Program-made: the position numbers and the translations under genes
Shown here: positions 5,193-61,210 of the stretch, piece by piece
Layout: the number at the start of each line of letters is the position of its first letter
Position numbering within the stretch: the stretch's first letter is position 1
The notes under the pieces: model-generated
The model's input: only the letters and a program-made list of their open reading frames with translations
Told to the model about the DNA's origin: nothing
The model's database searches: none
IMG/VR virus record: IMGVR_UViG_3300048839_000188
Span: 5,990 to 69,989 of that record
Strand: one strand, 5' to 3'
Source: a virus
DNA: 64,000 nucleotides

Positions 5193-6109
5193 TGCCCACG
5201 ACCAATAAAAAATCAAATCCTGCCGTCAACGTGGCTATGGATATCTATCGCAAAGCACAGGAGATGGCGAGAAAGATGCAACAACCCAAGGAGGGCGACT
5301 CCAGGTTGAAGGCTCAAATCATGGGCGGCATTGGAGGAATCGCAGAGCAGTTCATCCCCGCTAGTGAGGAAGACATGATGATGAATGCCATCATGGGCCA
5401 AGTGAATCCTACTGCTGCGATGGTCAAGATGCCCGCGCACTTGGTTGAACAGTTTGCGAAAAATTTCCGCAATCGTGTCCCACAACAATTAGAAGACGAA
5501 GGGCAACAGACACTGGCGTATTATTTTGACCGGATGGCACAAGATAAACCAGAATGGATGGGGCAACTTGAAGATGTTGTGATTACGCCCAAAATAAATG
5601 CAGCGGGGCTTTACACTTCCACTGCCAGCATGAATCCGTTCAAAATGTTTCGTTCACATGAAGCCGCTGCAAATGCTGGCATGACTGCCAGAGCAAACAA
5701 TAGAATCACCATAAATCCACGTCGTGTGATGGAGAACACTTCGATTGATGAGTTTAGTGGTATTCCGGCTAACCAATTAGTGCGTCATGAGTCCAAACAT
5801 TTGGACCAGGACTTGCGCGGACTGATTATGAACAACCGAGATGTGCCTTATTATCTTGAACCAAATGAAGTCGAAGCTAGAATTTTCGAGCGAGAAAAAG
5901 AATTTGATCTGGAAAACATCCTCAATCAACTTCATTATGGGAAGAGATTGGAACAATATAGCAAAAAAACCCCCCTAGATCAAATTAGGGAAGGACTTAT
6001 CAGGTCTTTGACAGAATTAGAAAGAAGAAGACAAGGATTGACAAGTGAGCAGATGCCTTCTATCAGCCCCGATATCATGCGTAGATTATTAGCAGGTCTA
6101 GAGCCCTAA
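5192..6109 (+). CDS. zincin-like metallopeptidase-domain protein (polyvalent-protein type)
   Basis: RHESKH (HExxH) followed by YYLEPNEVEAR. Confidence 0.6.
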   Translation: MPTTNKKSNPAVNVAMDIYRKAQEMARKMQQPKEGDSRLKAQIMGGIGGIAEQFIPASEEDMMMNAIMGQVNPTAAMVKMPAHLVEQFAKNFRNRVPQQLEDEGQQTLAYYFDRMAQDKPEWMGQLEDVVITPKINAAGLYTSTASMNPFKMFRSHEAAANAGMTARANNRITINPRRVMENTSIDEFSGIPANQLVRHESKHLDQDLRGLIMNNRDVPYYLEPNEVEARIFEREKEFDLENILNQLHYGKRLEQYSKKTPLDQIREGLIRSLTELERRRQGLTSEQMPSISPDIMRRLLAGLEP

Positions 6110-15360: not shown

Positions 15361-17207
15361 GCAGCATCGCGGGATAAGGTGGTATCGTCAACCACTTCCA
15401 CCATCTTACCCAAATCGATTGTGACATTCTCAATAGCTTTTTCTCGCGCAAGAAAATCCTCCTCACTGATTGACTCATAGGGTGCGTTTTCATATTTGTG
15501 GTCATCTTTTGGCAAGAATGATAATCCGCCGACAATTGGCCACCATACTGATAACCATGATAGCACACTCTCCCACTCGTCTGGTTTGACATAGATGGTT
15601 GATGATGGATTATGATCGCACCACCACAGTTTCCATGCTCTCCAGTATTCTAATTGCTCTAATGCGCTCATGTCGTCTTTGCTCAATGGCGATGGGCTCT
15701 TGACAGGAATCTCCACAATCGCATTAGTGCCCTCGTAAACATGTGGGACTCCTTGGGCAATCAGTGTGTTTGCTAGTTCAGAACCAGAATCGAGCCGTAG
15801 TCGGCGCAGATAATAAGGTGCCCATCGAGCGTGGATTCCACTAGAGCAATCCAATAGTTGTGAGCTATTACCAGAGGGTTTGTTACATGTGATCGCAGCG
15901 CTCTGATTGATGCCCAGTTTGTGCGCATATTTTCTATTGGTCTCATGTGCGACCCGACTTAAGTCCTCTAAAATAGTGGGCAAGTCATTCAGATTACTAC
16001 TACTAAGTAGTGGACAATCCTGCGTGCCTGTGATATCGACTCCTAATAGTCTCTCGCGCTCGCAGTTCTTTGACCACTCCGGTCGCAGATTGGGAAAATA
16101 TGTCATGCATGATTGAATGGTGCCCCACACTGTTGCTAGATGGACTTTTTCTTTCAGCGAACCAAAATCATCATCGGGCCTCGCCACTGCGATTGACAAA
16201 TTGCAGAATTGATGTGGCTCTAGGATGATTTCACCACATGGATTAGTCCCATATTCGACACCAAGAACTCTCATACCATCCTGATGGCGATTGAAGATTC
16301 CTGGTTCACCGTAGCCATCCTTTGCTAATGTGTCGATGATTGTATTCAAATCACTATGCGATGCAACCATGCTATTGTTAGCCTTAGCCAGTTCAGGATA
16401 CTTCGAAAACCAATCTCCTGTTTTGCAATTTAGCATATCGCCATCTTCTGCTGAAAATAATGCAATCAGTGCTGCTCTGCGGACGCCGCCCACATCTACG
16501 ATTGAACCTGCTAAGCAAGCAAGACGATGGATATCGATTGACCGCAGTGCCTCACCTTTGCGATCACTAATGATGTCCCATGTTCCATCCAATAGTTTGC
16601 GCAGAGGTTCAGGTCCAGATGCACGACCGCCCTTAGTGGCCAATGGAGAGCCGTATGGTCTAATCCTGCTATAATCAAACTTTGGCTTAACGGCATCTAA
16701 TGACATATCAATTGCACGATAGAAAGCATCAGCCCACCCTAATGATGAGTCTTCGATAATATAAGGAATGTGATCTTTATCATCAACTGTTCCACTGTGT
16801 GTGTAGTGCTTAGGCGAGCGCCACTCTATGACATGCTGCAATTCCACCGAGTAACCCACGCCTGTGCCGCACATCAGAATATACAATAGTTCTCGGAGTG
16901 CCTCTGGCCCATCCAACGGTAGATATGAACAGTTGTAAAGATGCGTGTGGTCTCGTGCTGCTGCTGGTCCTGCCATCTGAACAGCACGCATCGAAGGCAA
17001 TACCTGTTTGTCGAGCATAGCTTTGCGAAGCCTCTTCCACACTTGTTCATCTAGCTTTCTGTTTTGCTTATTCAACTCATCGGTGAAGAACTCAATGACT
17101 CTATCAGTGGTCTCTTCCCATGTCTCTCTTCTATTAGCATGCGGTAGATATCTCGCATATTTATCGTAACGAACTATCTCTTTAAGTAACTCATTTCCTG
17201 TCATCAT
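15330..17207 (-). CDS. nrdJ: class II (B12-dependent) ribonucleotide reductase
   Basis: KYARY, LPSMR, YNCSY, GTGVG, VGGVRRAA, TNPCGEI, KPSG and C-terminal ACLGGMC. Confidence 0.92.
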   Translation of the reverse strand: MMTGNELLKEIVRYDKYARYLPHANRRETWEETTDRVIEFFTDELNKQNRKLDEQVWKRLRKAMLDKQVLPSMRAVQMAGPAAARDHTHLYNCSYLPLDGPEALRELLYILMCGTGVGYSVELQHVIEWRSPKHYTHSGTVDDKDHIPYIIEDSSLGWADAFYRAIDMSLDAVKPKFDYSRIRPYGSPLATKGGRASGPEPLRKLLDGTWDIISDRKGEALRSIDIHRLACLAGSIVDVGGVRRAALIALFSAEDGDMLNCKTGDWFSKYPELAKANNSMVASHSDLNTIIDTLAKDGYGEPGIFNRHQDGMRVLGVEYGTNPCGEIILEPHQFCNLSIAVARPDDDFGSLKEKVHLATVWGTIQSCMTYFPNLRPEWSKNCERERLLGVDITGTQDCPLLSSSNLNDLPTILEDLSRVAHETNRKYAHKLGINQSAAITCNKPSGNSSQLLDCSSGIHARWAPYYLRRLRLDSGSELANTLIAQGVPHVYEGTNAIVEIPVKSPSPLSKDDMSALEQLEYWRAWKLWWCDHNPSSTIYVKPDEWESVLSWLSVWWPIVGGLSFLPKDDHKYENAPYESISEEDFLAREKAIENVTIDLGKMVEVVDDTTLSRDAACLGGMCVWE

Positions 17208-17649
17208 TAAAATTCTCCAAATACTTAATCGCTGATTCTAATAATCTTAGGCTGTCTTTAAAGTTACCAATGCCAGCGTTGCACCGGGTGCACAATAAGC
17301 CCCTTACTTTCTTAGTTTTGTGATCATGATCAATACAAAGATAATTACGATCTGGAGAACCATGACAAATCATACATTGATTATTACAATCTTGTTCTAG
17401 TTTAACATAATCAACTTCACTTAATTTATATTTGTTTTTAACATGGCGTAAACGAGCTTTCTTAACACCATTTTGTAAATGCCATTTATTAGCTTGTTGG
17501 CGTATATGCTCCCGTTTATTATGATAACGAATATTAGATAATTCATTTCTACAAGGCTTACAATAGCTATAAACTTTATTTTGTCGTTTGTCTAAATATC
17601 TACCTCTCTTTATTTTTCCGCATTTTTTGCAGTTGCCTGTCACTATCAC
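17191..17649 (-). CDS. endonuclease VII-type (His-Me) homing endonuclease
   Basis: CMIC ... IDHDHKTKKVRGLLCTRCNAGIG. Confidence 0.88.
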   Translation of the reverse strand: MIVTGNCKKCGKIKRGRYLDKRQNKVYSYCKPCRNELSNIRYHNKREHIRQQANKWHLQNGVKKARLRHVKNKYKLSEVDYVKLEQDCNNQCMICHGSPDRNYLCIDHDHKTKKVRGLLCTRCNAGIGNFKDSLRLLESAIKYLENFNDDRK

Positions 17650-17818: not shown

Positions 17819-17838
17819 ATCTTTGTCCTTAGAGACAC

Positions 17839-17865
17839 AAAAAGCACTCCCATCTAGGAAGTGCC
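17839..17865 (-). terminator. intrinsic terminator
   Basis: GGCACUUCC-UAGAU-GGGAGUGCU followed by a U tract. Confidence 0.75.
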
Positions 17866-17878
17866 TTTGTTGGAAATT

Positions 17879-17934
17879 CAGAACGATTCTTTATCAATTA
17901 ACAGTTGATTGGTTTAAAATGCTGTCTCGTTCTG
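17879..17934 (-). ncRNA. CAGCA-motif structured element D (putative)
   Basis: CAGAACGA/UCGUUCUG stem, GACAGCA, inner AUCAA-CUGUUAA-UUGAU hairpin. Confidence 0.65.
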
Positions 17935-17945
17935 CTATCAAATTT

Positions 17946-17998
17946 ACACACCAGCTTGGTTTACATAGCAATTGTAATTTAAATGCTGATTGGTGTGT
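17946..17998 (-). ncRNA. CAGCA-motif structured element C (putative)
   Basis: ACACACCA/UGGUGUGU stem, AUCAGCA, inner UUACA-AUUGCUA-UGUAA hairpin. Confidence 0.65.
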
Positions 17999-18018
17999 CT
18001 TTTCAAATCATAATACTA

Positions 18019-18447
18019 TTATACTTTCAAAGTCCTTAGCGTGTCAAGCTTTTTTAAATCTTGCAGCCAAAATTTATACTCTCGACGCTTGGCAAATTCT
18101 TCAGGTGTTAGTTTCCTATCGCGTATTGGTTTACCACTATTCATGTTAAGCCAGTTTTGAAACTCTATAGCTGCCTCTGCTTGTTTATGTTTTACTAGTA
18201 AATAAGGTAAAAGCAGCTGCAATAATTTCTGCGCGTTCTTTGACCCAAATTGTAAAGTAAAACATTTATTTGTCACTTCTGGAATAGAACTACTTATGCC
18301 ATGCTGTGTTTTGAGATAGTCCTGTATTAAACCTAAAATAGTCCTAAACTTTTGAGTAATGGTCACATTTAAGCCATAACTTTTAACTCCATTTATGGCT
18401 ATGCAACCTTCACCATCTAGAAATCCAGCTATGTATTCTAAAGTCAT
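18019..18447 (-). CDS. free-standing single-motif LAGLIDADG homing endonuclease
   Basis: YIAGFLDGEGC and LLPYLLVKHKQA. Confidence 0.9.
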   Translation of the reverse strand: MTLEYIAGFLDGEGCIAINGVKSYGLNVTITQKFRTILGLIQDYLKTQHGISSSIPEVTNKCFTLQFGSKNAQKLLQLLLPYLLVKHKQAEAAIEFQNWLNMNSGKPIRDRKLTPEEFAKRREYKFWLQDLKKLDTLRTLKV

Positions 18448-19856
18448 AGTGTGATAGCTGAATACCTATCACCATTGAGAGTGTCAAGCACTAATTCAAT
18501 TGGGTTCACTGCCTTGCCAGAAACAACAGACTTCATAATCGATGGACTGTAACCGCTGACTAGGAAGACGCCCTTCTCGTCAAACTTCGCCGGGACACCT
18601 GTTGAAGTGCGCACGTTCCAGAAGACAATCTGTGGCATCTCATACCCTGACTCTTCATACTCCTTGCGAATCATCTTCAAAGCATTAGCATTCGGATATC
18701 TAGTAGCTCGGTTGAACTGCATGTCGCTGATGATTAGGATCTTAGAAGGCATATCCTCAGCAGCCACATCATTCTCTTGTGCTCTCTGTAAAATAACGCG
18801 GAATGTCTTCTCCAAGTCTGTTGACATACCCCAATCTGCGTGCATGATGCTCTCGACCTTACTGTAGAGACTCCTGCCTGATACCTTATGGAAAGCAGGC
18901 TCATTTGAGAATGTCACAATTACATTCTTGAATGCGGATGTATTACGTTCGCTCAGATATAATCCGAGTGCCACTGATACTGCCATTGGCTCACCGTTCA
19001 TGGAACCTGAGACATCACATACAGGGAGAATCTTTTGGTCGTTTAACCCAATATCTGCTAAATTAGCCCAAGCATTCTCATTCGCAACTTTCTCCGACTC
19101 AAAAAAGTCTACCATCACAGCCTTGACAACATCAGACGGAAACAATGCCTTGGCGTTCATCTTGGCTTTACCACTAGCTACTGCCTGCTGATATGTATTA
19201 TATCTATCAGTGTCCCTCTTGGCAAATGCCTTTCTATACATATGGAGTGCTTTTGATGGCAGCTTTTCGTAATCAACATCAGCCCACCTGTTTGTGCTCA
19301 TCAACTGCTCAACAGTCGTAGACCACTGAACGAGACCCTTCCTCAATGTCTTCCTGTCAGTCTTCAACTGTCTGCGAGCGAATCCGAACCACTTTCCATC
19401 ACGCGGAAACCACTTTGCCGCCAGTGAGTGCTTGTTACCCTTCTCGCTATCGTCATTAAGTTGGTCCAGCCACAGATTAAATGCATCCTTGGCAACAGGA
19501 GTATCGAGAGTCTCAACAAGGTCATCCCATCTTCCATAAATCGGCACATAATGGACAATCTTCCTAGCAATCTCGCTTTCTTGTTTCGCTAACCACTTCA
19601 AGCAGATGCGGAAAAATCTCCTCTCGCCCATTCCGCCACGGATATCACGGATATAAAACAAGCACCTGATAGCCCATAGACGATCTTCGTCATACGCGCT
19701 CCTAAAGATGTCGATGATCTGTGATTCAGTCATCTTTCGTGACCCGCCTGATTTAAAGAACAAATCTACTAGCTTCGATCCTGCTGTTGAGTGAGTTGGC
19801 ATTCCATTTTCACCAACCACATCATTAGTCTGCATTGCATCAATAAACGTTGTCAT
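18444..19856 (-). CDS. Ro60/TROVE-related DUF2828 + vWA domain protein
   Basis: RDIRGGMGERRFF, YGRWDDL, AAKWFPR, DVSGSM (MIDAS), ISDMQF and IVFWNV. Start MTTFIDAM follows a GGAGG RBS. Confidence 0.85.
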   Translation of the reverse strand: MTTFIDAMQTNDVVGENGMPTHSTAGSKLVDLFFKSGGSRKMTESQIIDIFRSAYDEDRLWAIRCLFYIRDIRGGMGERRFFRICLKWLAKQESEIARKIVHYVPIYGRWDDLVETLDTPVAKDAFNLWLDQLNDDSEKGNKHSLAAKWFPRDGKWFGFARRQLKTDRKTLRKGLVQWSTTVEQLMSTNRWADVDYEKLPSKALHMYRKAFAKRDTDRYNTYQQAVASGKAKMNAKALFPSDVVKAVMVDFFESEKVANENAWANLADIGLNDQKILPVCDVSGSMNGEPMAVSVALGLYLSERNTSAFKNVIVTFSNEPAFHKVSGRSLYSKVESIMHADWGMSTDLEKTFRVILQRAQENDVAAEDMPSKILIISDMQFNRATRYPNANALKMIRKEYEESGYEMPQIVFWNVRTSTGVPAKFDEKGVFLVSGYSPSIMKSVVSGKAVNPIELVLDTLNGDRYSAITL

Positions 19857-19860
19857 TTGT

Positions 19861-19932
19861 AAGAACCTCCCTTTTTGGTCAAATTCGGACGAACCGAACA
19901 TTTGACTTGAAATTGTATGCTGCGAGCTTCTT
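19861..19932 (-). ncRNA. CAGCA-motif structured element B overlapping the RBS of the Ro-like gene (putative)
   Basis: AAGAAGCUC/GAGGUUCUU stem (one mismatch), GCAGCA, inner GUCAAAU..UUCG..AUUUGAC hairpin. Confidence 0.6.
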
Positions 19933-19945
19933 CTTTCTCAAAAAT

Positions 19946-19995
19946 ACATTCCAATAATAATTAGCCATTTATTGTGTGTGTGCTGTATGGAATGT
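19946..19995 (-). ncRNA. CAGCA-motif structured element A (putative)
   Basis: ACAUUCCA/UGGAAUGU stem, UACAGCA, inner AAUAA-AUGGCUAA-UUAUU hairpin. Confidence 0.65.
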
Positions 19996-22759: not shown

Positions 22760-23389
22760 TTACTTTTTACCAAACGGGTGATTCTGACTGCCATTAGTAT
22801 GGTGATCTTCTACTAATGCATTGTGTGTGCGAAACATGTCTGCGATCTCATCCATGCTCCATGGGCCACAGACGCCTAAGTGAGCCAAATTATCAACGCC
22901 TACATCCATGCTCTTGTTAGTCAGTTGGGGAAGATTACCGTGTGAGTGCCCATACAGGTGCCATGAGCCCCTAGCTTGATTGTTCCACACCCTCAAACCA
23001 TAATGAAACAACACAATCTCTTGCTTGTTTATGACGATTTCCCGATAATGACCAATCGAATCAAACGTCGTAAATCCTGCGCCTTTCATGAATTTCTCTG
23101 GTGCCTTATGCTGATAGTGGTCATGGTTACCGAGAACAAGGTGGATATTAGCACAATTGAGGCGAGCGCGAAAAGCCGAGATTGACTCCACTCCTCCAAA
23201 GGACCAATCACCCAAGTGATACAAGGTGTCATTGAGGCCCACCACCATGTTAATCTTACGAACCAAAGCCTCATTCATAGCCTCCAGACTAGGGTAGTTG
23301 CGGCACTTACTTTTGTCAGCCCACTCAGATGTTGACGAACAGATGTTTTTGTGTCCATAGTGTGTATCGGACGTGAAAAAGACAGCCAT
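22760..23389 (-). CDS. calcineurin-like metallophosphoesterase
   Basis: FTSDTHYGH, LGD, GNHD, HY, GHSHG and DVGVD. Confidence 0.9.
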   Translation of the reverse strand: MAVFFTSDTHYGHKNICSSTSEWADKSKCRNYPSLEAMNEALVRKINMVVGLNDTLYHLGDWSFGGVESISAFRARLNCANIHLVLGNHDHYQHKAPEKFMKGAGFTTFDSIGHYREIVINKQEIVLFHYGLRVWNNQARGSWHLYGHSHGNLPQLTNKSMDVGVDNLAHLGVCGPWSMDEIADMFRTHNALVEDHHTNGSQNHPFGKK

Positions 23390-24352: not shown

Positions 24353-25369
24353 TCACCGAGTCAGCGCCAACTGTGTGCCCCTGACTAGCTTTCTATTGTC
24401 AGCCGTTGACTGCACGAAGATATCAAAATTAGAATGATTCCCCGGAACAACCTTTCCTGTTTTGTATGGCTGCAATCCTAGTAGCTTCCTAGCCTGTGGA
24501 CCACCCCACAGCATTGACGATGTCTTCTCCTTGATTAACACATCCTTATGACCCTGGATTTCTTCTGGTTTCGTTAACTGATAAAAAGCTGTGCCCCTGA
24601 TGTAAGGCTGTCCGGTTTGTGTGCGCACAAACTCATCAATCCTCTGTTCTGCTGGAACCTTCAATAGTTTGAAGTGCGTTGTCAGATTATCACATTTCTG
24701 AAGGTCATTTGTTTTGACTTCGCTCAAATCCGTAACAACACTGTAGAAATTGCTAACTTTCTTCGTCCCTAAAGAACGACTCTTCGTATACTCTCTATAT
24801 GCGCTTTCAGTTGCAATCTGTGTCTCATGGGTGCCAATTTCAGTGGCTTCCCACTCTCTAACATTGCCAGCAGGGACTCCATATTTTGTGATCCATCCAC
24901 TGGAACCTGGTGGCATATTGAAAACCATAGTCACATTCTCTTTGGACTGAAACTGCTTGATGAGTTCAGGAAACTTTCCAACCTCATCATCAGGTGAATT
25001 ATTCTCCTTTCCATCTGTAATGGCAATCATCAAATGCGCCACATCATCCATCAAATTATGTGACTGTCTAGCGTGCGCATTCAATGTGGCTGTGATTGCG
25101 CTGACTAGTGCAGTCTGGCCATGAGGATCGTAATTTGAAATTACCAAATTCTCATTATAAGCATTAATGGAATCGAATACCACATCGAGTTTTTTATGCG
25201 AGCCGAATTTACAAATTGTAAAATACGTCTCCTGATTGTCCTCTTTGGCGCGATTCTTGATATCTGCGATAGTTTGTGCCAGAAGTTCGCGGACCTTGAA
25301 CAGAATACTCTGCATCGAACCCGATTCATCGAGAACCAACGATACATAATTGATTTTCTTTCCACTCAT
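24353..25369 (-). CDS. vWA domain protein
   Basis: VLDESGSM, GQTAL and ITDGKENNS. Start MSGKK after a GGAG RBS. Confidence 0.85.
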   Translation of the reverse strand: MSGKKINYVSLVLDESGSMQSILFKVRELLAQTIADIKNRAKEDNQETYFTICKFGSHKKLDVVFDSINAYNENLVISNYDPHGQTALVSAITATLNAHARQSHNLMDDVAHLMIAITDGKENNSPDDEVGKFPELIKQFQSKENVTMVFNMPPGSSGWITKYGVPAGNVREWEATEIGTHETQIATESAYREYTKSRSLGTKKVSNFYSVVTDLSEVKTNDLQKCDNLTTHFKLLKVPAEQRIDEFVRTQTGQPYIRGTAFYQLTKPEEIQGHKDVLIKEKTSSMLWGGPQARKLLGLQPYKTGKVVPGNHSNFDIFVQSTADNRKLVRGTQLALTR

Positions 25370-25382
25370 TCTTATGTTCTCC

Positions 25383-25757
25383 TTAATGTTTACCAGTCCT
25401 AAATCGCCATTTAGCTTTTCGTAAAGCACTAGCTTTTTTACAATCTTTACAACGACAACCTTTAGAATACGCCAAATTCGTGCCATGCATAAAAGGTTTT
25501 AACAAACTTGCATTACTTTTCTTTTGATGGCATGCAGCACATAAAACTTGACACTTTGATAACTCTTGTTCTCGTCTTTCTTTTGTCCAACTCCATACAC
25601 AATGTGATAATTTAGATTCTGGAAAAATATGATCTAATTCTAATTGCGAGTTATCTCCACATTTTACACAGATTTTACCGTGAAAATAATCTGCACGTCT
25701 CCTAGCCATCCATTCTCGTTGATAAGCTCGTTGTTGTGCTATATTTTTATAGGGCAT
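25383..25757 (-). CDS. HNH homing endonuclease
   Basis: CVKC..LELDH..KCQVLCAACH and HGT..Y..GCRC. Starts 3 nt after the tRNA-Leu CCA. Confidence 0.85.
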   Translation of the reverse strand: MPYKNIAQQRAYQREWMARRRADYFHGKICVKCGDNSQLELDHIFPESKLSHCVWSWTKERREQELSKCQVLCAACHQKKSNASLLKPFMHGTNLAYSKGCRCKDCKKASALRKAKWRFRTGKH

Positions 25758-26020: not shown

Positions 26021-26260
26021 TTATACGTTTTCCCGATGGCTTCCTCCAGTCCATGTGCGCCCGTTGACTATTTTACTGATCTGATTTACTGTTGCATTGA
26101 ATTGGCGCATAATATCTTTATTACGAACGCCGTCAGTATGAAGTTGTCGGACACAATTGACTGCCTCCTGTGTTAATTTGGCTCGTCCATGATTTTCACC
26201 CTTGGCATTCAATTTTTGAAAATATTCTGTCAATAGCCTCCACTCTTCACCCCTACGCAC
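26021..26260 (-). CDS. HTH DNA-binding module like the C-terminus of HNH endonucleases (possible remnant)
   Basis: GENHGRAKLT...ISKIVNGRTW with no nuclease domain. Confidence 0.55.
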   Translation of the reverse strand: MRRGEEWRLLTEYFQKLNAKGENHGRAKLTQEAVNCVRQLHTDGVRNKDIMRQFNATVNQISKIVNGRTWTGGSHRENV

Positions 26261-26454
26261 TCAACACGGTCAACTGATGGCCACATCACATTGGTGTCAA
26301 TTGACGACATTAATTCTCTCTGCGCATCCAACATATTCATAGCTTCATCCTCTGTTTCTGCCTCGATTTCAATAGTCTTCCTCAACGGTATGTAACCTTC
26401 GATTTCAATCACATAAATGGGCACCTTTATTCCACCTTCTCCACATTGAAACAC
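26230..26454 (-). CDS. hypothetical protein
   Basis: IEIEAETEDEA motif typical of small phage proteins. Confidence 0.5.
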   Translation of the reverse strand: MFQCGEGGIKVPIYVIEIEGYIPLRKTIEIEAETEDEAMNMLDAQRELMSSIDTNVMWPSVDRVECVGVKSGGY

Positions 26455-26669
26455 CTGACACTGTAATCGCGTAGAATCTGATATTCCCTATATCCTTTCG
26501 AACTACACAACTGTGTGCCAATTTGCTGCTCGACATAATGCGCACCGAAGGCTGCACCCATCAGCCATAATCCCGCCCCGATTAGAAACTTCATCATAAC
26601 CAATGTCTCCTTACATAGTTGAATCCTTAAATAATCGATGAGGCCCACCCAAATGGAGTCGTGAACCAC
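26427..26669 (-). CDS. small membrane/secreted hypothetical protein
   Basis: Hydrophobic MKFLIGAGLWLMGAAFGA segment. True start probably internal. Confidence 0.45.
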   Translation of the reverse strand: MVHDSIWVGLIDYLRIQLCKETLVMMKFLIGAGLWLMGAAFGAHYVEQQIGTQLCSSKGYREYQILRDYSVRCFNVEKVE

Positions 26670-27076
26670 ACATTACGACAATTGCTGATTGCCAACCACG
26701 AAGCGCACAAATGACATGGGGCACTCATCCTCCACTCACCCTGGCGGTTCAATCTCACGTTCACAATCGACCATTCCCTAGTGACATCCATTATACCACG
26801 ACCGCGCTTGAACGCCAAGACTTCAGCATGTAGTTTGTTACGTTGTGGGTCATAACCCAACTCGACTGGGCCTGATCCAGTTCGATTCGTTGCCCACTCG
26901 ACAATCTTCCCATCCTGGACAATGAATGACCAATGCATGAAGTTCAACCACTCGGGGTGACTTTTATGCTGCTGCTGACAAATCTGCATTGCTTGCTGGA
27001 GGAGGCGTTTCTTCAATGAATACACTCCGATTGTCGCTGTTGAGGACCACACACCGCGAGCTATTATATGACCCAT
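26627..27076 (-). CDS. cytidine/deoxycytidylate deaminase-like protein
   Basis: HAE and SAPCHLC zinc motifs. Confidence 0.75.
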   Translation of the reverse strand: MGHIIARGVWSSTATIGVYSLKKRLLQQAMQICQQQHKSHPEWLNFMHWSFIVQDGKIVEWATNRTGSGPVELGYDPQRNKLHAEVLAFKRGRGIMDVTREWSIVNVRLNRQGEWRMSAPCHLCASWLAISNCRNVWFTTPFGWASSII

Positions 27077-27264: not shown

Positions 27265-27561
27265 TTAGATGTCCCTCACTTTTTGAGCCAGATAAAAACC
27301 ATTCCCCTTGACAATTCTTTCTTGGGATGTGGAGAGATTATAAGGCACTTCTCTAACATCACTCACAGCCTTGTAATGCATCTTCTTAGCTGACCAATAG
27401 CCACTGGAGCCAAAATCCACACACCAACCCTCAGTTGGATTCAAATAAGCAACAATTCCAGTCATCGCCTTCGCTGCGCACAGTTCAAAGTCATCTTCAT
27501 CTGTTGTAATAACCACCACCCTTTTACCATCAATCTCCTTCAACTGTTTGGGGGTCAACAT
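27265..27561 (-). CDS. hypothetical protein
   Basis: Fits operon packing, with GGAGG upstream. Confidence 0.55.
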   Translation of the reverse strand: MLTPKQLKEIDGKRVVVITTDEDDFELCAAKAMTGIVAYLNPTEGWCVDFGSSGYWSAKKMHYKAVSDVREVPYNLSTSQERIVKGNGFYLAQKVRDI

Positions 27562-28300
27562 CTGCGAAAATCCTCCTCAATGATTGTTTACTCCACTCAT
27601 CCACGTAGGTATCCGCTAGCCACTCACTGACAAACTCAGTATCCACTTCCTCAGGCATATTATCGAGTTTCAACAATCTCTCGATTTCCTTCTCATGATT
27701 CATCGCTAGCTGGAGAACCTCTTCTTTCTTCCATCTACCAGCACGAATTGCTCCACAAATAGCCCTGTGCTTTGTGGTCATCGGCAACATCAACTGCTGA
27801 TTACGTGCCAATTGTGTGCCCATCACAGCTAAGCGGATAATATGCATCGCATACTTTGTATCATATCCGAACTGTTCAATCAGCTTGGAACGTTTGATAT
27901 CCATCTGCCCGCGTTTGCCTTCTAGCCTCTCGCGTTGGTCATGCAAATAGTGCATATAACTCCTCACCATTCTTTTGGTGACAAACTTTGATCGCATCTC
28001 GCATAATTGATGCGACCATTCACAACTTTTAACCTGCGCTCTTGAAGGTGCCCACAGCAATTCATTCACAGTGGGATTACCCTTCACTAAAAGGCGCACA
28101 AACTTGCGCAATGAATGAATAACAGTATTCGATTCCTTGTTAGTATGCGTATCGAATTCACTCAGCCCAACACAATGTGATGGCGGCTCAACAACTACTC
28201 CTGAATAGTCATAATCACTGTCATCAGTGTGTAATCCATACAATCGTGAGCCTGTGAGAACAACGAATTGTGCGCCAGAAGCAATCTCCTTTGAAGTCAT
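27530..28300 (-). CDS. Pol-beta superfamily nucleotidyltransferase (YcgL/RlaP-like)
   Basis: GSRLYGL...SDYD, GNP...ELLW and GYDTKYAMHIIRL. Confidence 0.85.
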   Translation of the reverse strand: MTSKEIASGAQFVVLTGSRLYGLHTDDSDYDYSGVVVEPPSHCVGLSEFDTHTNKESNTVIHSLRKFVRLLVKGNPTVNELLWAPSRAQVKSCEWSHQLCEMRSKFVTKRMVRSYMHYLHDQRERLEGKRGQMDIKRSKLIEQFGYDTKYAMHIIRLAVMGTQLARNQQLMLPMTTKHRAICGAIRAGRWKKEEVLQLAMNHEKEIERLLKLDNMPEEVDTEFVSEWLADTYVDEWSKQSLRRIFADVDPQTVEGD

Positions 28301-36942: not shown

Positions 36943-37128
36943 CTATGAACACGTCTTGATCTTACCATTAGGAGTGTATTCTACTGTGACTCCTGATGGA
37001 AACTGTAAATACGAGACACCATCTACACACGAACGTGAATATCCTGTGAATTTGGCAACCTCCCTGTTAAGATTACCACAACCTACGCACAGAATACTGA
37101 CTACTGCAACAAACAGAATCTTGTTCAT
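36943..37128 (-). CDS. small lipoprotein
   Basis: Lipobox CVGC, CVDGVSYLQF. Confidence 0.65.
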   Translation of the reverse strand: MNKILFVAVVSILCVGCGNLNREVAKFTGYSRSCVDGVSYLQFPSGVTVEYTPNGKIKTCS

Positions 37129-38453
37129 GAAAATTCCTCCATATCTGCTACTGAATCATCCAATTTGATGATGCCTTCGAGCACTTTGAATGCAAAACTC
37201 TTGTGCTTGAGCGCATACTGTTTGCCGTCTGGTGTCAGAACATGGACAATCACACCCTCCCGCAGATGGCTACTGTCTAAAGTCGATGGTCCCTCAACAA
37301 TAACCTCCAATCCCTTCTTCAGCAATTGGCGACAATTATCATTGTAGATGACAACAGGTCCGTCGTCTGCATATGAGGGTCCGTGATGCCATTGCCAAAA
37401 TTCTTGCGTCAACGACGGAACACATTCTATCTGGAGTTGGTGGCACCTTTTCCTAACCTGTGGGGGTGTTAATTCCACACATTGACCATCCTCGTTGAAC
37501 TGTAGGATGCGGTAACAATAGAACTTGCATTGTCCTGGTGATTGGCCATAGCTGTATGTAATCTTTGCTCCATAACGTTTGCTGATGTCGCTCAGTTCTT
37601 TGGGCACATCCACAGGGGGCATGATTGGTTGCTGTGGCGCGTGGAATCCGACGATTTCGCCATACAACACTTCGCCTTTTCGTGGTTCTACTCCCATAAG
37701 TGCTTTGAATCTGAATGCATCAGAGCCATAATATCCGGTTCCACTGGTGGCACCCAATATAACGTTGCGGGTCCCATGTTCCAAGGAGTATTGAATCCTC
37801 TGTGTGTGGCCCAATAGCCTGAGAAACCAATTCGTCGGCACAATCTGAGCCACGCAACCAAATCTGTGTGATGTGCCATGGAGTTTTTCTGTGATCCATA
37901 CCAGTGAGCCAAGCGGGATATCGTCTGAGCCGTAACGGAATTGTTCTGTGTCATAGTGTTTGGGGAATCCCTTCAATTCGCCCTTCTTAACAGTGCGCTG
38001 ATTCTGTTGGGCGACCATGAAAGTTTTGGTGGTGATATACTTATTGCAGATTGGAACCCCACCAGCCTCAGTGAACCTATCGCCCACACTCGACAGCAAA
38101 GGTGAATTTACATTGATGGCAAAACTTAATGCTGTGCGAGGAATCCAAAATCCCTCACTTTTTGCACCCCTGAATGTCTGTGCCCTCACTCGTCTGTTTG
38201 TGTCGAAGAATCCAACCTTATCGGACTCCGCTAATCCCAACTGCTGTCTGGCACTCTTCGAATACAATCCATTAGCTACAGCGAACTCGTGACTCAGTTG
38301 GCCATCGCAAGGAAAATAGATGCCAACATCACCCTCCTTTTGGTCGAGTCCTACAATTACTTGGTCGCCCCAACAATCCGCGATTTGTAGTCTGTCAGCA
38401 TTGGGATGCGGTCTAACGTTTCTCAACCCAGTCACAATCGCTGAGTAACTCAC
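37125..38453 (-). CDS. RNA ligase (DRB0094/Rnl-like family)
   Basis: HPNADRL N-terminus, TEKLHGTS, YGEIVG, REGVIV and ALKHKS. Confidence 0.85.
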   Translation of the reverse strand: MSYSAIVTGLRNVRPHPNADRLQIADCWGDQVIVGLDQKEGDVGIYFPCDGQLSHEFAVANGLYSKSARQQLGLAESDKVGFFDTNRRVRAQTFRGAKSEGFWIPRTALSFAINVNSPLLSSVGDRFTEAGGVPICNKYITTKTFMVAQQNQRTVKKGELKGFPKHYDTEQFRYGSDDIPLGSLVWITEKLHGTSHRFGCVAQIVPTNWFLRLLGHTQRIQYSLEHGTRNVILGATSGTGYYGSDAFRFKALMGVEPRKGEVLYGEIVGFHAPQQPIMPPVDVPKELSDISKRYGAKITYSYGQSPGQCKFYCYRILQFNEDGQCVELTPPQVRKRCHQLQIECVPSLTQEFWQWHHGPSYADDGPVVIYNDNCRQLLKKGLEVIVEGPSTLDSSHLREGVIVHVLTPDGKQYALKHKSFAFKVLEGIIKLDDSVADMEEFS

Positions 38454-60265: not shown

Positions 60266-61210
60266 ATGAGAACATTCAAGGATTTACAGGACTCTGTTTT
60301 AAGTTGGGTCGCTGAGACTGGTGATACGGACAAGATGCTCACACTCACGAAGGATGCCATCAATCAAGCACAGAGGGCATTCTTGGCGAGAGAGCAGTAT
60401 GATTTCATGCTATCACCGACAGCGGAGACGATTTCTGTGGAAGCTGGCAGGAAGCATTACCCGTTGAATGCGTTGTTTGGTTCTATGTTGTATGTGTATA
60501 ATCCTGTCACTGATGATTGGATGGAAGAAATCTCAGCGAAGGGTTTATTAGAGCATGGTGAGAATCCCTATGATGCCACACAATCGCAGTTGAAGCATTA
60601 CATGCTGACATCTGTGTGGCCTGTTAAGAGACAACCAACAACAACAGGTTTGGTGACAATCAGCACTGGTGGAAGCCCTGAGGCGGCAGCAAACAGTGTC
60701 ATCATCAAAGGACTCAACAATAGTGGGGAATATGTGGAGGAAACATTATCATCTGGTAGCACTTGGATTGAGTTGGAGTCAACGAATTCATTCACAACTA
60801 TTACAGATGTGGTGAAGTCGTATACTAGTTGGACATATCAGATTTCCCTAGTCGATACAGCGGATGTTGTTTTATTAGTGTTGCCAGCGACTGAGTATGC
60901 CAAACAGTATCGGCAATTGGAATTCATCAAAGCACCAGAGACAGCACAGGATATTGTGTATCGTTATTATATGAAGACCAAAAAGATGGTCGAAAATTAT
61001 GACTCGTGTCATGTGCCTGAAGAGTTTGACCAAATTCTAGTCTACCGTGCTCTGATTGAGATGCAGGGTTATGTTCGCCCCACAGAGAGCGAACTAAATT
61101 ATTGGATCAAGCAAGCTGATAAGTTGGAGCATCAATGTAGCATGGCGTATACGCAGACAAGGAGCCTTGGTGGCAGACCTTCATATGTGCAGTATAGAGA
61201 GCGTTACTAG
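60266..61210 (+). CDS. head-tail adaptor / tail tubular protein A-like
   Basis: TF.DLQ..V, INQAQR and VPEEFDQILVY.A motifs. Confidence 0.75.
   Translation: MRTFKDLQDSVLSWVAETGDTDKMLTLTKDAINQAQRAFLAREQYDFMLSPTAETISVEAGRKHYPLNALFGSMLYVYNPVTDDWMEEISAKGLLEHGENPYDATQSQLKHYMLTSVWPVKRQPTTTGLVTISTGGSPEAAANSVIIKGLNNSGEYVEETLSSGSTWIELESTNSFTTITDVVKSYTSWTYQISLVDTADVVLLVLPATEYAKQYRQLEFIKAPETAQDIVYRYYMKTKKMVENYDSCHVPEEFDQILVYRALIEMQGYVRPTESELNYWIKQADKLEHQCSMAYTQTRSLGGRPSYVQYRERY

Follow-up and report, generated by a model that had tools for sequence, protein, structure and literature searches.

We analysed 64,000 nucleotides (nt) of viral DNA, positions 5,990 to 69,989 of the IMG/VR record IMGVR_UViG_3300048839_000188 (the whole of this stretch is referred to below as the window), in which three short elements, denoted A, C and D, accompany the gene of a 485-amino-acid protein resembling Ro60. 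Ro60 and Y RNAs are conserved from bacteria to humans. Our results indicate that A, C and D probably belong to an RNA family linked to the Ro60-like protein, in whose interiors a variable module imitates one part of a tRNA, the anticodon arm included. We have high confidence in the description of these RNAs as a scaffold plus a mimic; the use to which a phage would put them can be proposed far more tentatively.

All three elements are read from the minus strand, as are the neighbouring genes, and in the direction of transcription element A is followed by the gene of the Ro60-like protein, a LAGLIDADG gene, a promoter-like site, elements C and D, and a hairpin with a U-tract. The common layout consists of an 8-base-pair (bp) closing stem, two unpaired bases, the motif CAGCA, an A/T-rich stretch with a small inner hairpin, and the 3' arm of the closing stem. 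In element D (17879-17934) the 5' arm CAGAACGA (17934-17927) precedes GA and CAGCA (17924-17920); a 10-nt linker (17919-17910) leads to the inner hairpin AUCAA-CUGUUAA-UUGAU (17893-17909), and AAAGAA separates this hairpin from the 3' arm UCGUUCUG (17886-17879), which is followed by an A. The hairpin has a stem of 5 bp (AUCAA at 17909-17905, UUGAU at 17897-17893) and a loop of 7 nt (17904-17898), which in tRNA numbering reads C32 U33 G34 U35 U36 A37 A38. An earlier note on this DNA had recognized here an anticodon arm with a tRNA-Asn(GUU)-type loop, and this was confirmed: CUGUUAA is the anticodon loop of 46 of the 1135 tRNAs called by ARAGORN in the phage loci that we fetched (48 of the 1135 have the anticodon GUU), and element D has the only hairpin with this loop on either strand of the 64-kb window.

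The CAGCAA RNA family and its partner protein

Eighty viral loci were fetched around homologues of the 485-amino-acid protein with 38-46% identity. A strict scan of these loci, in which CAGCA had to follow a stem of 7 bp or more after 0-3 bases, gave 88 matches on the strand of the gene and within 700 nt of the homologue, which corresponds to 0.80-0.82 per kb, compared with 0.035-0.095 per kb elsewhere and on the opposite strand. RNAalifold predicted no pairs on a plain MAFFT alignment of 66 elements, because the 5' arm occupies two registers; the closing stem was therefore supplied by hand for a subset of 43 rows. The covariance model R1, built from these 43 elements, specifies the closing stem alone and contains no sequence of the window. 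When the whole window was searched on both strands with default filters, element D was the sole match (22.2 bits, E 0.0075), and in a search of 11 kb with the filters off D had the best score, with A in second place (14.2 bits, E 0.13) and C in fourth (11.0 bits, E 0.78). Thus, D is a clear member of the family, and A and C are divergent members. In 81 loci R1 gave 77 matches, distributed over 49 of them, with 76 located within 700 nt of the gene and 75 on its strand. The two matches on the other strand (L001:3578-3647 and L001:3686-3741) lie upstream of the gene in the locus of the most distant homologue (33% identity). A crude scan of the window also found an 8-bp stem, two bases and CAGCA at 60651-60704 on the plus strand, far from the Ro-like gene; R1 reports nothing there at E <= 10, and this structure is probably a product of chance.

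The same association was found when the search was started from the RNA. IMG/VR was scanned for the gapped pattern AGGAT, CAGCAA, ATCCTG, which gave true elements mixed with chance matches, 41 of the 80 listed loci being R1-positive. A homologue of the protein was present in the stored stretch of 17 of these 41 loci, always on the same strand, and in none of the 39 R1-negative ones. When whole records were searched, eight strong homologue matches and a weak one were obtained in 22 positive records, compared with one match in 26 negative records; the positive records without a homologue match are mostly fragments of no more than 20% completeness. Elements occur in named phages as well. Listeria phage A511 has three in tandem just upstream of gp178, the trio ending 34 nt before the start codon, and a weaker fourth match (19.8 bits, E 0.017) about 3.7 kb upstream. 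In the Felix-O1-like Salmonella phage SP116 four elements are found between tRNA genes downstream of the homologue, in the cluster-L mycobacteriophage Rumpelstiltskin two clear matches and a weak third one (14.3 bits, E 0.42) lie just downstream of gp54, and Vibrio phage nt-1 has one element upstream of its homologue. The consensus can be written as (U)AGGAUnnn, 0-3 nt, CAGCAA, an A-rich interior, nnnAUCCU and G, with a closing stem of 7-10 bp; CAGCAA is kept in 145 of 163 unique elements. No family of Rfam 15 matches the elements of the window, of 15 related loci or of the four named phage loci. The elements are a widespread family of putative small phage RNAs, tied to the DUF2828/DUF7788 protein in both directions of search.

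The protein encoded in the window (18444-19901, minus strand) matches the Pfam families DUF7788 (1.2e-50) and DUF2828 (7e-32) and has a vWA-type C-terminal domain, for which weak vWA matches are obtained in Pfam; Pfam TROVE gives no match to it. When its AlphaFold2 model (mean pLDDT 84.1) was compared with the PDB by Foldseek, the top 13 matches were all Ro60/TROVE structures (E 1.7e-7 to 9.3e-5, alignments of about 500-550 columns), among them Ro60 of Xenopus, Deinococcus, human and Thermus phage phiLo. The Ro60 matches are full-length (1yvr, 9kop, 2nvo, 9l5y), with TM-scores of 0.45-0.58. A HEAT-repeat ring with a vWA domain bearing a MIDAS site, a feature of membership in the Ro60 family, is recognizable from the fold and from invariant residues: the MIDAS-type D296, S298, S300, T361 and D393 (D-x-S-x-S, T, D) do not vary in 34 homologues. 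A profile of these 34 homologues found no Ro60 among the PDB sequences. As modelled, the protein is Ro60-like by fold only and by sequence is not a member of TROVE, and it is at the level of the fold that the 'Ro-like scaffold' presumed in the earlier note holds.

Homologues are numerous. A word-based protein search gave 4818 DUF2828 family proteins at E <= 0.001 among 8000 candidates, and of 50,697 named phage records 710 have a DUF2828 homologue by tblastn. Their carriers include Felix-O1-like coliphages, Salmonella phages, Listeria A511/P100-like phages and mycobacteriophages, in which the homologues are annotated as 'Ro-like RNA binding protein', and also phages of Vibrio, Staphylococcus, Campylobacter, Enterococcus and Bacillus. 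When the DNA of the region was compared with named phages at near identity, nothing matched. Scans for close relatives with the single protein gave one locus in viral contigs (33% identity) and six in metagenome contigs, all of at most 40% identity.

tRNA-like modules in the element interiors

The earlier note proposed that homologous elements be tested for enrichment in 5-bp stems carrying 7-nt loops with U at the second position. The signal was faint in the first 75 unique elements, with inner hairpins feeble or absent and loops of 3-17 nt, although an excess of 7-nt loops and of Y-U-NNN-R loops could already be seen. With the addition of a pattern-derived set, chosen regardless of the interior, the pooled test covered 163 unique elements in 123 clusters, and taking one representative of each and excluding the window left 120; 500 dinucleotide-preserving shuffles served as controls. 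A 7-nt loop on a stem of 5 bp or more was present in 39 of the 120 clusters (17.35 +/- 3.70 in shuffles), and Y-U-NNN-R-N loops on such stems in 21 (1.92 +/- 1.29 in shuffles, maximum 9), so that the proposed test is positive. Narrower loop definitions gave 15 clusters for C-U-NNN-A-[A/C] (0.34 in shuffles) and 10 for C-U-NN-U-A-A (0.06 in shuffles), and none of the 500 shuffles reached any of these observed values. Of the loop lengths from 3 to 12 nt, 7 was clearly enriched and 9 slightly; 3-6, 8 and 10-12 were not. The result was replicated with criteria fixed beforehand in a fresh set, composed of elements found with a second pattern (AGAAT...ATTCTG) and of previously unsearched loci of the first scan, from which interiors with about 75% identity or more to an earlier one were excluded. 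In its 36 clusters Y-U-NNN-R-N loops occurred nine times (0.98 +/- 0.95 in shuffles), CUNNNA[A/C] six times (0.18) and CUNNUAA five times (0.03).

The stems that carry anticodon-type loops are almost always exactly 5 bp long, and they vary in sequence under an unchanged loop. CUUUUAA was found on at least seven different stems, including UCAAA/UUUGA, UUUCA/UGAAA, UUCAA/UUGAA, UUUGA/UCAAA, UUGAA/UUCAA and UUAGA/UCUAA. In an alignment of 33 rows, changes on both sides were seen at all five pairs of the anticodon stem and 93.9% of cells were paired, with a covariation score of 0.559 as compared with 0.157 in shuffles and at most 0.148 when the partners were slid. A strict anticodon arm is present in 55 of 225 unique interiors (24%), in 37 distinct 17-nt versions, and element D has the layout of this subfamily, that is a 17-nt 5' linker including CAGCA, the arm, and a 6-nt A-rich 3' linker. 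Loop length and sequence, which the earlier note had considered might prove random across homologues, are not so in these 24% of interiors. The exact geometry and sequence of the anticodon arm are under selection in the subfamily that includes D.

The anticodons displayed by the 37 distinct arms are UUU (10 arms), UGU (4), UCU and GUU (3 each), GCU, UGA, GAU, UUC and UAU (2 each), and seven others, each in a single arm. Position 36 is U in 29 of the 37, compared with 200 of 515 real phage tRNA arms in the same loop frame; position 39 is U in 31 of the 37, compared with 65 of the 200 real arms having U36; and the complete U36-A-A-U39 (UAAU) is found in 22 of the 37. The G+C content of the stems is 24%, in real phage tRNA arms 60%. 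Not one of the 37 arms is identical to an arm of the real tRNAs of these loci, and CUCAUAA (Met), the commonest real loop, is absent from the 225 interiors. Real tRNAs with the same anticodons occur in the same loci (L089, L146); the elements are therefore not stand-ins for missing tRNAs.

Other interiors resemble other parts of a tRNA. With overlaps allowed, the 163 unique elements comprise 32 with a strict and 12 with a loose anticodon arm, 26 with a D-like hairpin, five with a T-loop and 98 with none of these. The T-arm-like hairpins, G+C-rich 5-bp stems with a UUCRANY loop, were found in five of the 120 clusters (0.15 in shuffles) and in three of the 36 fresh ones (0.06). Two elements, L146:7696-7801 and L096:1442-1547, fold into a closing stem, a CAGCAA linker, a D-like hairpin, an anticodon arm, a short variable region and a T-arm, and neither was called as a tRNA by ARAGORN. 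A further class has GG-containing loops of 7-10 nt, such as AUUGGUA, AUGGAAA and UGCGGAU. UGCGGAU occurs in both a Salmonella phage (L084:5875-5933) and a mycobacteriophage (L085:5470-5523), on different stems, which suggests a further conserved loop class.

For elements A and C the earlier note was right about the hairpins, but the reading of these as anticodon arms is not supported. Element C (17946-17998) has the 5' arm ACACACCA (17998-17991), then AU, CAGCA (17988-17984), the hairpin UUACA-AUUGCUA-UGUAA (stem strands at 17977-17973 and 17965-17961, loop at 17972-17966) and the 3' arm UGGUGUGU (17953-17946). Its minimum-free-energy fold, calculated by RNAfold, retains both helices, the inner hairpin included. 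With A at position 32 and U at 37 the loop is not a canonical anticodon loop; it is one base away from AUUGGUA and fits neither the anticodon nor the D-like class cleanly. Element A (19946-19995) lies upstream of the Ro-like gene and beyond the range (17879-17998) covered by the earlier note. It comprises the 5' arm ACAUUCCA (19995-19988), UA, CAGCA (19985-19981), an inner stem of 4-5 bp (AAUAA at 19973-19969, UUAUU at 19960-19956) with the 8-nt loop AUGGCUAA (19968-19961), and the 3' arm UGGAAUGU (19953-19946). The hairpin said to be related to an anticodon arm does exist, and with its 8-nt loop it falls in the GG-containing, D-loop-like class. No cloverleaf is formed by A, C or D, and both T and D arms are absent from D and C.

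Many elements are placed as tRNA genes are. Of 233 model matches, 171 are in loci with tRNA genes on the same strand; 85 of these 171 lie within 10 nt of such a gene, and only one of the 171 overlaps a tRNA call, which indicates that many elements fill tRNA-sized slots in polycistronic arrays. Such elements would be freed by the enzymes that process the flanking tRNAs. The C-D unit of the window differs from this placement in having promoter-like and terminator-like signals of its own. About 20 nt upstream of element C a sigma-70-type promoter-like sequence, TTGACA-18 nt-TATAAT (18018-18047, minus strand), agrees with the consensus hexamers at 12 of 12 positions, a consensus match only. The unit is closed by a terminator-like hairpin of 12 bp followed by a U-tract (17835-17868, minus strand; minimum-free-energy fold), which shows a weak partial match (E 1.8) to the terminator part of Rfam Ref64 and is not listed by a consensus terminator scan. 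TTGACA is also found upstream of the A511 trio, with no convincing -10 element there. Among public sequencing runs no RNA run carrying the window sequence is listed, and 0.22 of the sampled words are contained in one DNA run.

tRNA genes abound in the related loci, some of which also carry a tmRNA, a group I intron, a pistol ribozyme or a freshwater-1 RNA. In five loci (L009:3018-3083, L026:2419-2480, L057:2510-2876, L012:6158-6631 and L082:5723-5920) RNAs of these last four kinds were found no more than a few kb from the Ro-like gene. In addition, stretches of 110-120 nt beside CAGCA elements (L068:5084-5195, L055:5193-5312, L075:5087-5205, L081:6798-6909 and L068:5486-5603) are matched by the Rfam tRNA model and are possibly tRNA genes interrupted by an insert or an intron.

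Weaknesses of the proposed reading and alternative explanations

Several observations weigh against the reading of the elements as Ro60-linked RNAs with tRNA-like modules. Many interiors have no predicted hairpin at all, and the 98 of 163 elements without a recognized tRNA-arm module mean that anticodon mimicry is not a family-wide trait. Even for element D the best RNAfold structure lacks the inner hairpin, an alternative pairing being preferred. The R1 scores of C and A are weak (E 0.78 and 0.13) and both elements are without the AGGAU/AUCCUG consensus; furthermore, 32 of the 81 homologue loci have no R1 match at E <= 0.1. As to the statistics, the shuffle controls ignore relatedness, and significance is therefore overstated. 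The 33 rows of the covariation alignment were selected for possessing the hairpin, the D-loop-like pattern, found in 19 of the 120 clusters compared with 3.32 +/- 1.77 in shuffles, was written after the data had been seen, and AT-richness of the stems may account for part of the U39 excess.

One alternative explanation, which we regard as unlikely, would be that the elements are cis-acting signals, either sites at which the Ro-like protein regulates its own mRNA or punctuation for processing or stability of polycistronic tRNA transcripts. Indeed, many of them fall directly in the untranslated regions of the gene, 5' or 3', as the 76 of 77 matches within 700 nt illustrate; the A511 trio stops just short of a start codon, at 34 nt, element A is just upstream of its gene, and other elements are closely spaced to tRNAs. 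However, elements are also found in tRNA arrays several kb from the gene, for instance in L141 and L157, and the C-D unit seems to be transcribed on its own, lying behind a homing endonuclease gene that has been inserted. Moreover, signals of this kind would leave the exact anticodon loops on covarying 5-bp stems, the T-arms and the cloverleaf cores unexplained.

It would also be improbable, in our opinion, that the elements are decaying tRNA genes or tRNA fragments within phage arrays, whose hairpins are remnants devoid of function. Such an origin could account for the tRNA-sized slots (85 of 171 matches within 10 nt of a tRNA gene), for the full cloverleaf core retained by some elements, for loops identical to those of real tRNAs and for the degenerate look of most interiors. 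Decay would not, however, be expected to conserve the closing stem and CAGCAA (145 of 163 elements) across phages of Listeria, Salmonella, Mycobacterium and Vibrio, nor to maintain anticodon stems by compensatory changes under a fixed loop. The lack of any arm in common with the real tRNAs of these loci (0 of 37) and the skewed anticodon use, with UUU the commonest and CAU missing in spite of being at the head of the real loops, argue in the same direction, as do the tight linkage to one protein family and the promoter-like and terminator-like signals of the C-D unit.

A very unlikely possibility is that the anticodon-arm elements work as minimal ('armless') tRNAs, charged and used in translation. 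They do have an acceptor-like closing stem of 7-10 bp with a conserved G placed like a discriminator base, a canonical anticodon arm of 5 bp and 7 nt, and a tRNA-like position in arrays; however, they possess neither a D nor a T arm, no CCA is encoded in the aligned flanks, ARAGORN does not call them, and nothing in tRNA corresponds to the long conserved CAGCAA linker. The same loci contain canonical tRNAs with these anticodons (UUU and UCU in L089, UCU in L146), and some of the loops would read stop or unusual codons (e.g. UUA, AUU). Finally, chance resemblance in AT-rich sequence is hardly credible as the source of the anticodon-arm likeness in the window: the inner hairpins are indeed weak by themselves (about -1.1 kcal/mol), those of C and A miss the canonical loop, and 7-nt loops on stems of 5 bp or more abound here (569 on the plus and 551 on the minus strand, of which 5 and 12, respectively, have CUNNNA[A/C] loops), but no other hairpin on either strand of the 64 kb has the CUGUUAA loop of D, a CUNNNA[A/C] hairpin is expected about 0.34 times per 120 interiors, and the same architecture recurs in dozens of independent phages.

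Possible function and relation to known systems

The reading that we prefer, namely Ro60-linked RNAs with an exchangeable tRNA-like module, can be developed into a mechanism by analogy. In the Ro60/Y RNA system a stem formed by the RNA ends and a short conserved motif are reported to bind Ro60, and the variable module, which in YrlA mimics tRNA, to tether a second factor (PMC4201824; PMC12135203). The putative phage RNAs are encoded on the strand of the Ro60-like gene, either beside it or in tRNA-sized slots of tRNA arrays. Each would be closed by a stem of 7-10 bp, (U)AGGAU...AUCCU with a following G, and would expose CAGCAA in single-stranded form after the 5' arm and a variable module in its A-rich interior. 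In about one quarter of the elements this module is an exact anticodon arm, with a stem of 5 bp and a loop of 7 nt that in most cases reads CUNNUAA; D displays GUU (Asn), A has a D-loop-like hairpin, and others have a T-arm-like hairpin or the complete core of a cloverleaf. The Ro-like protein would bind the closing stem and CAGCAA, as in complexes of Ro60 with Y RNAs, and the inner module would offer a part of tRNA to some tRNA-directed enzyme.

A separate problem is what this enzyme could be. It was reported that the PARIS nuclease AriB cuts the tRNAs for Lys (UUU), Thr (UGU) and Asn (GUU), that UAAU at positions 36-39 is conserved beside the cut site, that the resistant tRNA-Lys of phage T5 has U39A, and that phage tRNAs are a known counter to tRNA-cleaving defence (PMC12409363). 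These targets, together with such counter-defence by phage tRNAs, make tRNA-cleaving defence the best candidate for the source of the enzyme. The particle might then bait or titrate host nucleases directed against tRNA, or take part in repair of the damage that they cause. We consider such a role possible, though doubtful; it is preferred among the functions because UUU, UGU, UCU and GUU dominate among the displayed anticodons, UAAU is common, and the window encodes an RNA ligase, RlaP and a phosphoesterase. Since the elements favour the anticodons of AriB targets and keep U39, they would suit a bait rather than a resistant replacement. This overlap with AriB targets, as well as the presence of RNA-repair-type genes in the window, is circumstantial. 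On the other hand, AriB is reported to need contacts distal to the anticodon loop as well (PMC12409363), so that the arm by itself may fail to serve as a substrate. The role of decoy or sensor for anticodon nucleases put forward in the earlier note is, by this analogy, a good hypothesis. In its broadest form, which we offer as a speculation, phages of many host phyla would make Ro60-like ribonucleoproteins, each RNA presenting one tRNA part, most often among the recognizable parts an exact anticodon arm for Lys(UUU), Thr(UGU), Arg(UCU) or Asn(GUU) with U36-A-A-U39, that bait or report AriB- or PrrC-type nucleases and are encoded beside tRNA arrays and repair enzymes.

The genes in question are all on the minus strand: the RNA-repair-associated nucleotidyltransferase RlaP at 27530-28300 (PF10127, 2.7e-27), a Metallophos (calcineurin-like) phosphoesterase at 22760-23389 and an RNA ligase domain protein at 37125-38453 (PF09414, 2.8e-11). 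A second vWA-domain protein is encoded at 24353-25486 on the same strand, between the genes of the two tRNAs called in the window, tRNA-Gln and tRNA-Leu. Nearer to the elements, a free-standing LAGLIDADG homing endonuclease gene (18019-18447, minus strand; Pfam LAGLIDADG_1, 1.8e-7) overlaps the stop of the Ro-like gene and separates the latter from C and D, and an Endonuclease VII-family gene (17191-17649, minus strand) lies directly downstream of the C-D unit. RtcB was not found in the 69,989-bp record. In A511 an RtcB gene is located about 1.3 kb downstream of the DUF2828 homologue, with an HD phosphohydrolase also just downstream.

The closest known relatives of such an arrangement are the YrlA-type Y RNAs, which are reported to be bound by Ro60/Rsr (PMC4201824) and of which Thermus phage phiLo has Yrl1 and Yrl2 (PMC12135203). 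In both cases small RNAs, often in several copies, are encoded within a few kb of a Ro60-fold protein and on its strand, phage examples being known, and in both a stem formed by the ends flanks an internal loop with a short conserved motif, from which a mimic of a tRNA part protrudes. Location near a Ro60 orthologue on the same strand, a feature of Y RNAs, is thus found here, although the protein is of the DUF2828/DUF7788 type and not TROVE, and Ro60-like by fold alone. The mimic differs too, since YrlA imitates the T and D arms plus an acceptor-like stem, whereas here a canonical anticodon arm is the commonest recognizable module. T and D arms are present in a minority of the elements (the T-loops of five in 120 clusters and the full cores of L146 and L096). 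Two further findings speak against identity with Y RNAs: the reported motif GNCGAAN0-1G, or CGAA (PMC4201824; PMC12135203), is absent, CAGCAA taking its place, and the Rfam Y RNA and YrlA models have no match in the window (E <= 10), in the 15 related loci (gathering score) or in the four named phage loci (E <= 0.1). With a presumed Y RNA-like way of working and failure in the motif, Rfam and TROVE comparisons, the elements are therefore a variant and not Y RNA or YrlA proper.

Other known systems also invite comparison. The phage tRNAs that evade defence (those for Lys, Thr and Asn of T5 in the case of AriB) resemble the elements in their tRNA arrays and in the prominence of UUU, UGU and GUU; they are, however, described as complete and functional and as escaping through changes such as U39A (PMC12409363), whereas the elements have no D or T arm and for the most part retain U39 and UAAU. 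The rsr-yrlBA-rtcBA operon reported for Salmonella (PMC7790460) likewise brings together a Ro60-type protein, tRNA-like RNAs and RNA repair enzymes, but the window lacks RtcB, and its repair-type genes are 3-18 kb away and do not form one operon with the Ro-like gene. To tRNAs themselves the elements are similar in the geometry and loop sequence of the anticodon arm, in some T-arm-like and D-loop-like hairpins and in their position in arrays; they differ in the additional CAGCAA linker, and A, C and D are called as tRNA by neither ARAGORN nor Rfam.

In a literature search that did not extend to supplementary tables (e.g. the YrlA phage lists of PMC4201824), no description of the CAGCAA scaffold or of anticodon-arm RNAs beside DUF2828 proteins was found. 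The nearest statement concerns the Listeria phage protein CKA15_055, which is reported to resemble Rsr by HHpred and to be present in virions, and which might partner abundant non-coding RNAs (PMC12282133). Of the three 'highly transcribed non-coding regions' of CKA15 described there, with which we compared the A511 trio, the one given with coordinates in the text (PMC12282133) matches ROOL RNA and not the trio. In A511 a ROOL RNA match (87.5 bits, E 2e-16, below the Rfam gathering score of 99.1) lies at L083:2507-3058, i.e. at about 26196-26747 of the record, with a promoter-like TTGACA-17-TATAGT just upstream. Its position coincides with the top-transcribed 'non-coding' region of CKA15 reported at 26,236-26,727, CKA15_059-061 (PMC12282133), and the most transcribed RNA of CKA15 is probably ROOL RNA.

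These results indicate a second, much larger phage branch of the Ro60/Y RNA system, with an RNA scaffold of its own and a variable module that is directly legible as an anticodon arm, a T-arm or a D-loop. They also provide a search model and a name for conserved non-coding stretches that occupy tRNA-sized gaps in phage tRNA arrays. The questions that they raise are to what a Ro-type particle presents a part of tRNA, and whether phages bait tRNA-cleaving defences, which recent work has found to be common. If the proposed function is true, an RNA-based counter-defence would operate in these phages alongside their tRNA arrays and RNA repair enzymes.

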